Source: a virus
Taxonomy: Duplodnaviria > Caudoviricetes
Virus record (IMG/VR): IMGVR_UViG_3300046806_000035
Coordinates: 1-33,766 of that record
Length of the DNA stretch: 33,766 bases
Direction: 5' to 3' (one strand)
Shown one piece after another: positions 497 to 17,055 of the stretch. The position numbers and the translations under genes were made by a program. Numbering within the stretch: the stretch's first letter is position 1; every line of letters starts with the position of its first letter. The notes under the pieces are model-generated. The model worked only from the letters and a program-made list of their open reading frames with translations. It did no database searches and was not told where the DNA came from.

Positions 497-959
497 ACGA
501 TCTAGCGTTATTAGTACTCTTATAAGCCATATAGCAGATAGCGCTGGTATGATAGGTCATCGTGGTCTACGTTTTTTGCATGAGATAAACAGCTTTCCTA
601 GCTTTTACGTGCATCCTCGCAACGAGACTCGTCGTCATGATGGAGCTGGAACCAAGCTTGCTATATTACAGCTAGATGTTCGTGGGTATGGCTGGCATGA
701 AGACCTCAGCTACATTGAGAATCTTGTACGAAGCATTGAAACGGCAATTCAGACATATAGACGAGCTCATCCTGGCTTAATTCAAGAAGCTCGTGTAACA
801 ACTCTACGTACAGATGAAGGTGCTATGGCACCATATTGCATTTGTGATTTAACACTTGAGATACTATACACAGTAGAGCGTTTTGCAGTTTACACTTGTG
901 ACAGCGTACTGCTTACTTGTGATAGCACTCTTGTAACAATGGATAAAGGATACAGTTAA
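489..959 (+). CDS. tail terminator paralog B with C-terminal 3x T-x-D repeat tail
   Basis: [17 protein letters not shown] and TDEGAMAPY motifs shared with 29721-30176. Extra C-terminus [17 protein letters not shown]. Confidence 0.75.
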
Positions 960-1333
960 TGTCACAGCAAATTGTGAATGTAGGAGCAGTTCCAAACGAC
1001 GGCAGCGGTGATACGCTACGTGACGCTATGGTTAAAATCAACTCAAACTTTAGTGAGCTGTATAACACGCCAACTAGATTGATTAATAGCAGTAGTGGTA
1101 GCACAAGCGTTACAGATAGATATGTTGGCGTTAACTATGCTGGAACAGTAGCTGTTGCGTTGCACACCCCTACTTCTAATGGGCAGCAGATTACAATAAA
1201 AGATGAAAGCGGTAATTGTAGTAACCATCCAATTACTGTAACCGGAGCTGTAGACAATAGCGGATATTTTACACTAAGTATTGATAACGGCAGCGTATCA
1301 TTAGTATACAGAGATGGTTGGAGAATTATATGA
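959..1333 (+). CDS. short fibre/attachment protein with T4 gp9/gp10-like N-terminal motif
   Basis: N-terminus [29 protein letters not shown] matches the NDGTGDxLRxxxxKINxNFxELY motif. TAATG coupling to the upstream gene. Confidence 0.65.
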
Positions 1334-2562
1334 GTTATCTATTTAACGCGCCTACTGTTAGCCTTGATGCTTTTGCTCGTCAACGCATTTCAAATCCGTT
1401 TACTCTTGGCGACTATAAGCATATTTACGGACTTGATGATAACTTTTTAGATTATACTGTGAACGGTGGGAGCGTAGCTTATCAGCCTAACGCAGCTTGT
1501 GCTAGACTTAGCACCACCTCGAACAGCGCTAGTCGCGTAGTTCATCAAAGTAAATTTTATCATCACTATATGCCCGGTAAGAGCCAGTTGATTCTAAGCT
1601 CCTTTAACTTTTACGGAGCTACCGCAAATGTTCGCAAGCGCACAGGTTATTTTGACGATAACAATGGCGTGTTTTTTGAACAAGATGGTGCTGGGGTATT
1701 GAGTTTTACCGTTCGTTCTTATGTTAGCGGAGCTCCTGCAGATACAAAGATTGTTCAGAGTGTTTGGAATCATGATAAATGTGATGGAACTGGGCCTAGC
1801 GGCTGGGATTTAGATATCACCAAAACACAACTATTTTTCATGGACTTTCAGTGGCTAGGAGTCGGACTCGTACGTTGTGGATTCGTACATGAAGATCGTT
1901 TTATAGTAGCTCATGAGTTTTATCACTCTGATTTGCTTCCTACAGTGTACATGAGCACTCCTAACCTTCCTATTCGTTGTGAAATGCTTAATTATGGAAC
2001 CACCACAGGCGCATATATGGACCAAATCTGCTCTACAGTTATTTCTGAAGGTGGATATGTTGAGGCAGGGCAAGACTGGGCTCAAACTAGTCCGTCGCTC
2101 CGCAGCATCGCTGCAGGCGCTACGCTACCTGTACTTGCAATTCGATTAGCTACTACATTTAAAACATACACAAACCGAATCATTGTACGTGCTCACAATC
2201 TAAGTTTAGTTAGTACAGGTTCTACAATTGAGTATAAGCTAATCAAAGCTCCTAGCAGTGCTCAACTAACTGGTAACACTTGGGTAGACGTAAATACTAA
2301 TAGTGGAGTGCAGTATAATGCAACTGCTACAGCTTATACCGATGGGTCAGTTATTGATGCTGGTTATGTGAGCGCTAGTACTGCTGGTAGCAAAGCTACT
2401 AGTGGGTCTAGTCCCGCAAACCCAGCTTCTACAGCTAAAAAGAATTTTATAGTTCAAAACTATGACGCTAGTGATAGCGAAATATATATTGTTGTCGCTA
2501 AGAATATTGGTACAGACGCTACTACAGTAGGTGCATCTATTCAGTGGCGTGAAATTTATTAA
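1330..2562 (+). CDS. putative virion structural protein (beta-rich, possibly ConA-like), 410 aa
   Basis: ATG at 1330 overlaps the upstream TGA (ATGA). [15 protein letters not shown]-terminus and DFQWLGVG motif recalled from aquatic phage hypothetical structural proteins. Confidence 0.5.
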
Positions 2563-2572
2563 TGGAAATACA

Positions 2573-14626: not shown

Positions 14627-15475
14627 ATGGTTATAACTACAGTAAATGAATTAGAAACAGGCCTAGAAAGTAGATTCAGTAGGCCTACTAGCATCAAAAC
14701 TGATCCTACAGGTGGAGCTGCTACTGCTGGCCACTTTGTATCGTTCTGGAGAGCTTCTGGTATACCTGCGCCAGGCACTATACCAACAACTACACCAGCA
14801 ACAGCAAATACATCTACTACTGGTGCTATTCCTTTTATGCAGCAAAGCTATCCTGTTTATAGTTATTTATCAGAGATAGCAGTTAACGTCACAGTACCCA
14901 ATGCTACTGTAGAAATTCATGACAGGCTTATCCAAATGGGCGGCTTATCGGGTGCTAATACTGCTGTTCAACCAGTAACTGGTTTTGATTTACTATCTTT
15001 TAGCGGTATAGACAATATAGATGAGCGTATAGGTGATGCTAATTACTCTGACGTTCAGTGGTGGGTTGAGTTTTATGCAGATATAGGCGGTACAGCTAGC
15101 GTAGCTACTGTAGGCGTAACCTATGACGACGGATCTGTAGGACAGTTATCTGGTATAAGTGCTTTTGGTAGAAGAATTAGCAGAATGTTACCTCTTAATA
15201 GTTTTATACCAGCCGCGGCTTCTGGTAGATATATAAGAGGCATAAGTAACATAGTACTAAACGCGTCTACAGGTGGTGCAGGCAATTTTGGATTTACTGC
15301 TACTAGATATAGAGCATCTATGTTTGTACCTTTAATTACTCAAGTACATGAAGAAGGTTGGGTTAAAACAGGATTACCACAAATATACAACAACTCTTGT
15401 TTGTTCCCTGTTGTTATAACTCCTGGTACCAGTGCTGGAAATATAGCGGTTACAACTAAAATATCTCATGGATAA
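14627..15475 (+). CDS. putative virion/fibre-tip protein, paralog 1
   Basis: AAAGGT SD; ATG 14627 (or 14624). Aligns with the next gene: EIHDRL, RIGDANYSD(V/I)QWW, TATRYR, GLP.I.N.SCLFP.VI, KI.HG. Confidence 0.7.
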   Translation: MVITTVNELETGLESRFSRPTSIKTDPTGGAATAGHFVSFWRASGIPAPGTIPTTTPATANTSTTGAIPFMQQSYPVYSYLSEIAVNVTVPNATVEIHDRLIQMGGLSGANTAVQPVTGFDLLSFSGIDNIDERIGDANYSDVQWWVEFYADIGGTASVATVGVTYDDGSVGQLSGISAFGRRISRMLPLNSFIPAAASGRYIRGISNIVLNASTGGAGNFGFTATRYRASMFVPLITQVHEEGWVKTGLPQIYNNSCLFPVVITPGTSAGNIAVTTKISHG

Positions 15476-15485
15476 GGAATAAATA

Positions 15486-16325
15486 ATGACAATTACTACT
15501 ATTGATCATGTCGTAGATTCAATGGGTAATAACTCCTCTAGAATTATTATTGACAAAGCTTCTATTGCAAACACCTCTGTTGGTAACTTTTTCTCTCTAT
15601 GGAGAGCAACAGGCCAGCCCGGTCAAGGAGCAATCCCAACTACCGCAGCTGTGTGCACTAACTCTTTAGTTGGTTCTTTACAATTTACTCAACAAACATC
15701 TCCAGCAACTAGCTATTTAGGCTTGCTAGAGTGTATTGCTCCAAACGCGTCTGTAACTATAGAAATTCATGATAGACTTATGCACATGGGAGGATTAGAT
15801 GGTGCCACTTTAACTGCGCAGGCGGTTGACGTAGATATAGATTTAAATTTAGGCACTTCTAATTTAGGGGCAAGAATTGGTGACGCAAATTATTCTGACA
15901 TTCAATGGTGGTTAGAATGGTATGTTGATACAGGTGCCACTGCTTCTAACGCAACTGTCAATGTAAGACTTAATGACGGAACAGACGTTAACCTTACAGC
16001 AGTTGCTGTAGGTGCTACAGTAAGAGCTTCCAGAATGATACCTCTAAACTCTTTAATCCCTGCTGCTAATTCAGGTAAGTATATTATGAGAGTTAATACC
16101 GTTCAGCTATCTGGAAACATAACTACTGCCGATAGTTTTGGTGTAACTGCTACTAGATATCGTGGTGCTTTATTTATGCCTATTGCTAACGCAAGATTTA
16201 CTAGAACATGGTCTGAACTAGGATTACCTGAAATACCTAATTCTAGTTGTTTATTTCCTATTGTGATTGCTAACGCAACTTCTACTGGTAATATTAAAGG
16301 CACAGGAAAAATTATGCATGGTTGA
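15486..16325 (+). CDS. putative virion/fibre-tip protein, paralog 2
   Basis: AAGGA SD. Tandem paralog of 14627-15475. Confidence 0.7.
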   Translation: MTITTIDHVVDSMGNNSSRIIIDKASIANTSVGNFFSLWRATGQPGQGAIPTTAAVCTNSLVGSLQFTQQTSPATSYLGLLECIAPNASVTIEIHDRLMHMGGLDGATLTAQAVDVDIDLNLGTSNLGARIGDANYSDIQWWLEWYVDTGATASNATVNVRLNDGTDVNLTAVAVGATVRASRMIPLNSLIPAANSGKYIMRVNTVQLSGNITTADSFGVTATRYRGALFMPIANARFTRTWSELGLPEIPNSSCLFPIVIANATSTGNIKGTGKIMHG

Positions 16326-17055
16326 ATCGTACCGTAAAACAGGTTATCCTTTTGCTGCGTCAGACGTTATTTGGCTCCGCCAAAACCCTGCTGGTACTGT
16401 AGTAAGAACAGAGTTTTTTGGCACAACAGAAGCTTTACCTGTAGGACACATTAAATATTGGACAGGAGCTATTTGGGAACTAAAACCAGTCAAATATTGG
16501 AATGGTACGGCTTGGGTAACAAAACCTGTTAAATTTTGGAATGGAGTTTCTTGGACTGCTACAGGTTTAGGATTAGTGAATCAGTTTACTAACCGCTTAG
16601 ACATATTTGCCTGGAGTGGTTCTGTTGCAAACGCAGCGACAATCACTCGAGATACAACCACCGGTTTATCTCCAGCAGGCGGCGTACCACTGAAAATGGC
16701 TATCACTGGCAATGACCCGCACATTGGTACCTACAATGGCTCCCAGTGGAATATTGCGCCTGCAGCTACTGGCCAAACTTGGCAAGTAAAAGTCTGGGTT
16801 AAAGCAAGTGTTGCAACAACCGGTGAAATATTTATCTTTGGTGTTGATTCAGCTGGGGCTTTTATTTCAAACGCCGGAAATGCTTTCAATGCTGGTGGAT
16901 TTACAGTTGGTACTTCTTGGAGTGAGGTCAGTTATTCATTTACATTCGCTGATTCTAGCATAGCTTATATGCAAACACGTTTAGATGGTACACCTACTGG
17001 CGGTGCTGGTATTAACATGTGGTGGGATAACTTACAGGTGTATAGGCTTTCTTAA
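16318..17055 (+). CDS. adaptor with 3x K(Y/F)WxGxxW repeats and C-terminal CBM-like domain
   Basis: ATG 16318 overlaps the upstream stop. IKYWTGAIW/VKYWNGTAW/VKFWNGVSW. C-domain GQTWQVKVWVKAS..WSEVSYSFT..WWDNLQV resembles a galactose-binding-like CBM. Confidence 0.65.
   Translation: MVESYRKTGYPFAASDVIWLRQNPAGTVVRTEFFGTTEALPVGHIKYWTGAIWELKPVKYWNGTAWVTKPVKFWNGVSWTATGLGLVNQFTNRLDIFAWSGSVANAATITRDTTTGLSPAGGVPLKMAITGNDPHIGTYNGSQWNIAPAATGQTWQVKVWVKASVATTGEIFIFGVDSAGAFISNAGNAFNAGGFTVGTSWSEVSYSFTFADSSIAYMQTRLDGTPTGGAGINMWWDNLQVYRLS

Follow-up and report, generated by a model that had tools for sequence, protein, structure and literature searches.

The window analysed here, a stretch of 33,766 nucleotides of a tailed virus (Duplodnaviria; Caudoviricetes; positions 1 to 33,766 of the IMG/VR record IMGVR_UViG_3300046806_000035), encodes four short repeated peptides, each of which is paired with one end of a fibre or connector protein, here called its socket. 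The motif-socket pairing is real and widespread. The same pairs recur in other phages, the fourth pair consists of two halves of a domain that is found in a single chain elsewhere, and one of the peptide tags is gained or lost together with its socket gene. We consider it fairly probable, at roughly 0.7, that the four peptides are portable one-to-three plugs for trimeric fibre ends, a reading in which we infer binding, 1:3 stoichiometry, specificity and virion location. The repeats differ in period, which is 7 residues for TxD (plug 1), 6 for WxD (plug 2), 8 for LxT(Q/E)DG (plug 3) and 13 for KxWxGxxW (plug 4), and six-frame scans with regular expressions found the TxD triple and the WxD triple once each in the window. 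The tagged genes and sockets are under purifying selection, with pairwise ratios of nonsynonymous to synonymous substitution rates (dN/dS) of 0.06-0.23 across the comparable ones (three other comparisons reached saturation, and the two sequences of one further pair did not differ). All genes, tags and sockets described below as members of the four pairs, together with the untagged controls, lie on the plus strand.

The pairing of motifs in adjacent genes of other genomes had been put forward as a check in a first-pass annotation of this DNA, and the survey bore it out, since each motif was selectively paired with the predicted partner type in other phages. For pairs 1-3, viral contigs were scanned for each tag alone and the next gene was then read. 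The loci taken numbered 120, 120 and 119 of an estimated 1800, 430 and 650 matching stretches, respectively (strict tag patterns, artefacts included). Loci with fewer than 25 open codons upstream, or with no ATG gene within 150 nucleotides, were dropped, a tag was regarded as terminal when followed by at most 12 residues, and rows more than 60% alike were merged. The N-termini of three window proteins served as queries (A, the gp10-like connector; B, a fibre of 1527 amino acids (aa); C, the collagen-like fibre), and the threshold was passed by 2% of 675 background junctions. C-terminal TxD tags were followed by an A-type start in 29 of 32 loci (B 1, C 0), C-terminal WxD tags by a B-type start ('NGE..R.K.N') in 29 of 41 (C 0), and C-terminal LxTEDG tags by a C-type start ('KISEL') in 12 of 33 (A 0, B 0). 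Internal copies of the tags had the cognate start next in 3/19 (TxD), 2/15 (WxD) and 2/22 (LxTEDG). With regular expressions the corresponding counts for C-terminal tags were 22/32, 24/41 and 20/33 (26 under relaxed matching), versus 4, 7 and 10 of the 675 background junctions. The proteins that carry the tags were compared with PHROGs as well: 21 of 61 matched tail, connector or head families (major tail, sheath stabiliser, head closure and baseplate wedge proteins), 8 matched unknown families only, and none matched a non-structural category. The tags are therefore regarded as portable, because their carriers are diverse virion proteins.

Pair 1 consists of a tail terminator paralog and a gp9/gp10-like protein. 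Terminator paralog B (489-959, 156 aa; PF23818, E 2e-7; dN/dS 0.06 vs relative G002) carries plug 1, the TxD triple, at 894-944 (profile score 25.0, against -1.5 for the next site in the window). The stop codon of the paralog, TAA, shares bases with the start codon, ATG, at 959 of a protein of 124 aa with the PF07880 (T4_gp9_10_N) domain, and the tag and translational coupling first read from the letters were both found. Socket 1 (959-1333) has a gp9/gp10-like N-terminus (PF07880, E 4e-7; T4 gp10, E 1e-4) and a part weakly similar to the tailspike 7rfv (E 0.02), and its profile matched T4 gp10 at E 9e-14 and gp9 at E 3e-7. This protein is likely a trimeric connector, and the 410-aa virion structural protein encoded at 1330-2562 (phrog_1645, E 2e-113) is likely the cargo docked on it. 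The genes of the connector and the 410-aa protein are both missing from the relative G001, in which paralog B has no tag and terminator paralog A is retained (125-496 in the window, 123 aa, untagged; PF23818, phrog_3907).

Among 53 rows of terminator B homologs, 17 carried the TxD tag, 35 carried none and one carried an LxTED tag, and the tree of the terminator core requires at least 3 changes of tag state (4-5 in bootstraps). The tagged copies in near relatives had a gp9/gp10-type gene next in 8/8 loci, of which seven are near-copies (92-97%) and the eighth is G004, whose gp9/gp10-type gene encodes a different, 498-aa protein; untagged copies had the small terminase gene directly next in 2/2 loci, a count to which L554 and L557 contributed no row. 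The terminator B tag comes and goes together with the socket gene. Because 35 of the 53 copies are untagged and untagged copies run directly into the small terminase gene, the duplication of the terminator is independent of the tag. Both extra terminator paralogs (125-959) persist in relatives without the tag. In one homolog, P0172, an LxTED-type triplet replaces TxD at the C-terminus, so that the same carrier bears a different plug.

Pair 2 consists of a tail-tube paralog (3025-4386, 453 aa; phrog_3575; about 51% to the canonical tube, P0073; dN/dS 0.21) and a tail fibre of 1527 aa (4389-8972; PHROG tail-fibre matches), the first ~20 residues of which are socket 2. As previously noticed, the tube paralog ends in WADSGF-WSDAAV-WSD, which is plug 2, the WxD triple (4339-4383), and the fibre starts at 4389. 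The tag was present in 13/13 tube-paralog clusters and in 0/107 other tubes among the matches listed, in a comparison of the best 120 of 432 matches. Its tryptophans are kept across tube paralogs of 63-83% identity, and the spacers vary. A locus search with the tube paralog returned only two canonical tubes. The canonical terminator (29721-30176; PF23818, E 2e-19) and the canonical T5-like tube (30189-31460; phrog_3575; best cultured phage matches at about 28% identity) served as controls, and both lack such tails, as had been stated. The first-pass annotation had further proposed that duplicated core tail proteins were turned into fibre anchors by gaining a tag. This proposal fits the tube paralog, which was tagged throughout, and is weakened for terminator B, most copies of which are untagged and whose tag state changed repeatedly.

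The profile of socket 2 (A1) had no match to PF07880 in Pfam and none to gp9 or gp10 in the PDB, and a match to MotA (E 0.004) was regarded as chance. Sequence searches of the PDB with sockets 2 and 3 and with the intact domain of pair 4 found no phage relative, and Pfam held no family for sockets 2 and 3. In six loci (L027, L031, L036, L040, L065 and L068), long proteins end in WxD triples of the WRDGGxW type with no recognised socket gene directly next. An unrelated phage (L412:3100-10128) encodes a joint chain that runs from a spike base of the Rhodobacter capsulatus gene transfer agent (RcGTA) type (E 2e-6 to Rcc01079) through a 752-aa gene and a 645-aa gene to a fibre; the 645-aa gene ends in a WxD triple, and the first 60 residues of the next fibre are 58% identical to the 1527-aa fibre of the window.

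Pair 3 consists of a 77-aa adaptor (10058-10291; dN/dS 0.23 vs G001) and the N-terminus of a collagen-like fibre (10291-14610, 1439 aa; PF01391), which has a KISEL-type start, socket 3. The adaptor gene overlaps the ATG of the fibre, as the first-pass annotation held, and the four repeats that it described form two LxT(Q/E)DG triplets (plug 3), with starts at 10151 and 10226; each triplet comprises two full eight-residue units and a shortened third one, and the profile scores are 8.6 and 31.1. By profile comparison, socket 3 is unrelated to socket 1. Searches of cultured phages by tblastn with plug 3 and socket 2, which are short queries, gave no match. Upstream of the adaptor lies the gene of a small jelly-roll protein with an N-terminal arm (9717-10058, 113 aa), which was predicted by AlphaFold2 with a mean local confidence (pLDDT) of 93.6 and had generic jelly-roll matches only (best Z 7.7). 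It is an unproven candidate for the base of the 77-aa adaptor, and such a jelly roll upstream suggests a head spike. In seven loci (L129, L136, L153, L171, L221, L224 and L233) a signal-peptide-like leader, recognised by eye and by a crude hydrophobicity rule, stands ahead of the KISEL-type socket, which suggests exported fibres.

Pair 4 consists of the C-terminal end of the same collagen-like fibre (socket 4, about 14540-14607) and a 245-aa tip adaptor (16318-17055), in which three KxWxGxxW hairpin units (plug 4, 16453-16554; dN/dS 0.11 over the repeats) are followed by a C-terminal domain, phrog_22177. The two half-motifs were found as claimed, the fibre stopping at PPASPLVGDLWVDIN (14610) and K(Y/F)WxGxxW occurring at 16453, 16492 and 16531 and nowhere else in six-frame scans of the window; as for adjacency, the halves are 1.7 kilobases (kb) apart with two paralogous genes between them. 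The statement that both halves occur in one chain was confirmed by 28 distinct sequences that contain them together. One member of this set was predicted by AlphaFold2 to have four strands (pLDDT 83.6). Fibre ends align to positions 2-27 of the intact domain (strands 1-2), KxWxG repeats align to positions 28-41 (strands 3-4), and pair 4 looks like a four-strand domain divided between fibre end and adaptor. The family DUF7360 matched 5 of the 28 intact domains, with the first member below the cut-off.

The two halves also accompany each other across genomes. Upstream of tandem KxWxG repeats, a gene ending in 'ITV..AP..P..GDLWxD' was found in 17 of 26 distinct loci and in 16 of the 20 with at least 2 kb of DNA, and an end of the 'GDLWxD' type occurred in 0 of 3380 other open reading frame ends. 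Out of sample, the same regular expression was matched at 5 of the 8 loci with tandem repeats among 13 genome-collection loci. In the reciprocal test from the fibre end, repeats were found in 23 of 40 distinct loci with at least 3 kb downstream (17/34 when contigs already seen were removed), and the background was five non-KYW artefacts in 359 shorter loci. The match is maintained across 0.02-4.8 kb of variable genes. In addition, 23 cultured Rhodobacter phage records carry the KxWxG triple, and RcSalem gp12-14 and RcZahn gp39-41 have the gene order of pair 4.

The genes between the halves encode a 283-aa protein (14624-15475; 131 of 275 aligned residues identical to its neighbour) and a 279-aa protein (15486-16325), which are likely cargo of the fibre tip. 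The latter belongs to a large unnamed phage family (Atlas cluster of 4927 members, no Pfam family; predicted template modelling score 0.92, well folded), and RcSalem gp13 is identical to it at 188 of 279 residues. One to three tandem paralogs of these ~280-aa proteins occur among relatives (14624-16325 in the window; L254, L260, L266 and L549). At L413:8891-15942, the same collagen end, three paralogs and a KxWxG adaptor stand beside a different structural gene set, which we take to be T4-like. The matching genes of cultured Rhodobacter phages were listed without known function in the part of the source available to us (PMC8601537).

In the docking scheme that we favour, one chain of each plug would present three similar units to three equivalent sites of a predicted trimeric fibre or connector end. 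Plugs 1-3, as C-terminal tags, would hang N-terminal fibre sockets on the terminator ring, on an extra tube ring and on the small adaptor, respectively. The neck would thus receive the connectors through plug 1, possibly with the 410-aa protein as well, and the 77-aa adaptor would bear one or two collagen fibres through plug 3. Plug 2 would place the long fibre on the extra tube ring, since the C-terminus of the tube protein is the decorated position in T5 pb6 according to the available part of the T5 tail study (bioRxiv 10.1101/2022.09.20.507954). The far end of the collagen fibre would be closed by plug 4: strands 1-2 of each four-strand domain would come from the fibre end and strands 3-4 from one KxWxGxxW hairpin, and the plug would recruit the ~280-aa proteins encoded between fibre and adaptor. 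A wider proposal, to which we give somewhat less than even odds, is that aquatic phages draw on a common set of three-unit plugs, which exclude one another and any of which, appended to a virion protein of whatever kind, would add a fibre. One of these plugs would work by fold completion: a single adaptor would donate three hairpins to the half trimerisation domains of the trimeric collagen end, and the three-fold tip would become a platform present in one copy, on which receptor-binding heads could be exchanged. Four codes of this sort would be in use together in this phage, at its neck, its tube, its head and its fibre tip.

Several observations weigh against plugs of this kind, or against the strength of the counts behind them. 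The regular expressions for pairs 1-3 and for pair 4 were composed post hoc from the lists, and the set of intact domains was picked by a pattern containing both halves. Deduplication at 60-70% identity leaves shared ancestry among the loci, and the near-copies noted above make up 7/8 of the tagged near relatives of terminator B. No family was matched by 32 of the 61 tag carriers, 16 of 41 C-terminal WxD tags had no socket next that was recognised by regular expression, and tandem KxWxG was absent from the 7 kb downstream of 17 of 40 fibre ends. Collagen XVIII and XV trimerisation domains and domains of phage tailspikes or Mtd are the top fold matches of the intact pair-4 domain, all of them weak, with Z no higher than 4.5, and the TxD profile ranks the loop of T4 gp7 discussed below only 14th-17th of 3550 T4 windows. 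The case for full orthogonality is weakened as well. The profiles of socket 2 (A1) and socket 1 (A3) align with a probability of 93.5 (E 2e-7), by which sockets 1 and 2 are judged homologous, and 12 of 41 partners of C-terminal WxD tags also passed the gp10-like A threshold. For the docking codes of the first-pass annotation, selective partner classes were found, and the proposed orthogonality is weakened by pairs 1 and 2.

The explanation that best survives beside portable plugs, and which we nevertheless judge unlikely, is that the peptides dock fibres without an orthogonal code: TxD and WxD would be cross-binding variants of one gp7-gp9-type joint, and tag and socket genes would travel as a cassette. 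It has the docking step in common with the favoured explanation. The aligned socket profiles and the 12 gp10-like WxD partners speak for it, as does the fact that tag and socket are nearly always contiguous over a stop-start junction and would be kept together by recombination; moreover, TssK accepts two different TssG loops, as far as the available text of that study goes (PMC8406304). On the other hand, by regular expression an A-type start followed WxD in 0/41 and a B-only start followed TxD in 0/32, the periods are 6 and 7, pair 4 stays matched over 0.02-4.8 kb of variable genes, and socket 3 has no relation to socket 1. Still less probable is a role in assembly alone, in which the repeats would start fibre trimerisation or set its register, as the KxWxG protein in particular might do at the collagen end, and would form no permanent joint in the virion. 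The weak resemblance of the intact domain to collagen XV/XVIII trimerisation domains fits such a role, and both roles exist at fibre tips, with T4 gp38 as a chaperone and S16 gp38 as a tip adhesin (available part of PMC6851490); however, plugs 1-3 are fused to virion parts (terminator, tube, head-closure and baseplate proteins), and the window adaptor bears an additional 160-residue domain beside its repeats. A third view, that the tails lack any partner and are either small domains folding by themselves or sequence of low complexity or related to coupling, is very improbable and largely refuted by the pairing counts: many raw pattern matches are indeed off-frame repeats of collagen-like genes and internal TxD runs had no socket next in 16/19, but the partner classes are selective, the tag tryptophans are conserved between variable spacers, and loss of the tag accompanies loss of the socket gene.

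The principle of one chain with pseudo-three-fold symmetry on a trimer is already known from T4 gp7-gp9, TssG-TssK, phage 812 and S16 gp38, and the comparisons below are with the available portions of the cited sources. In T4, (gp9)3 binds a loop of gp7, residues 258-292 (bioRxiv 10.64898/2026.03.06.709160), which reads as a period-7 aromatic triple, and the N-terminus of socket 1 is of the gp9/gp10 type defined by PF07880. With the pseudocount at its lowest, the segment ranked best by the TxD profile lay in the loop in 5 of 7 stretches from gp7 homologs, and the sequence likeness of plug 1 to the loop is weak. Unlike the internal loop of a baseplate wedge protein, the triple of the window is a free C-terminal tag on a PF23818 terminator paralog within a T5-like non-contractile tail gene set. 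TssG foot loops with LG repeats on TssK trimers of the type VI secretion system (PMC8406304) and the arm-scaffold docking loops of phage 812 on tripod trimers (bioRxiv 10.1101/2024.09.19.613683) likewise bring three equivalent hydrophobic units of a single chain to a trimer end, whereas they are internal baseplate loops with other motifs and not portable terminal tags of several types. The S16/T2-type gp38 monomer caps the trimeric gp37 tip through three tryptophan-bearing elements (PMC6851490; PDB 6F45), which are three helices on a complete tip, in contrast to the three predicted beta-hairpins of the window that match the missing half of a split domain. The helical tryptophan attachment domain and polyglycine sandwich that mark gp38 were not recognised in the adaptor: no gp38 family match was found for 16318-17055 in Pfam or PHROGs, and its repeats align to a beta-hairpin. 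In these solved precedents, triangular loops or residues fit into the trimer end, in contrast to the wrapping chain imagined in the first-pass annotation.

Two further systems resemble single pairs. In T5, the tube paralog p140, found with the p132 collar that anchors pb1, is a duplicated tube protein without immunoglobulin decoration at the side-fibre site, and the C-terminus of pb6 decorates the tube (bioRxiv 10.1101/2022.09.20.507954). The T5 collar is a separate dodecamer and p140 is 9% identical to pb6, whereas the tube paralog of the window is about 51% identical to the canonical tube, accessory, and provided with a tag of 15 residues. Between tube and chaperone, the window has no gene resembling p140. 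The RcGTA head spike Rcc01079-Rcc01080 (PMC7296036) also solves a symmetry mismatch by a repeated peptide on a single chain, and 9717-10291 resembles it in that the gene next to the small jelly roll encodes a protein whose N-terminus is hydrophobic, the 113-aa protein sharing the jelly-roll base with N-terminal arm in its generic fold only. The spike differs in being 1:5 and not 1:3. Neither fold nor sequence searches gave a match of the 113-aa protein to Rcc01079, though a true homolog of the base was found in L412. A description of these motif pairs was not found in topic searches of the literature, which did not use the literal motifs and left most subscription papers outside their coverage, nor in the available text of PMC11445458, PMC12609058, PMC12617516 or the Goslar preprint.

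If the binding is true, short terminal motifs would make it possible to predict, for thousands of phage genomes that lack annotation, where on the virion each fibre is attached, the gain and loss of appendages through small recombinations would be explained, and connectors of 15-40 residues for trimeric proteins would become available. Novelty and testability are both greatest for the split-domain joint at the fibre tip, and pair 4 can be tested directly in cultured Rhodobacter phages.

The record is a 33.8-kb linear fragment with a completeness of about 30%, and encodes a T5-like structural region with terminase, HNH-like gene, portal, protease-capsid fusion, head completion protein, terminator, tube, chaperones and tape measure. 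A pb6-type tube, a p142-type terminator and the order terminase-HNH-portal-protease-capsid, which is the gene order of T5, are all present, and the cultured phages matching the canonical tube are regarded as T5-like. The accessory block (125-17055) holds the two terminator paralogs, the tube paralog, the fibres and small proteins, and includes the gene of the small terminase subunit (2573-3025; phrog_3802). The fibre cassette is followed, at 17135-21058 in the window and likewise in G001, by two large genes for multi-domain glycosyltransferases, one of which includes an FkbM methyltransferase domain; they may serve the glycosylation of the Ser/Thr-rich collagen fibres or of DNA. At 27047-28381, a concanavalin A-like (LamG) domain is inserted in the head completion protein, and L001 and L002 encode a protein of equal length and the same layout.

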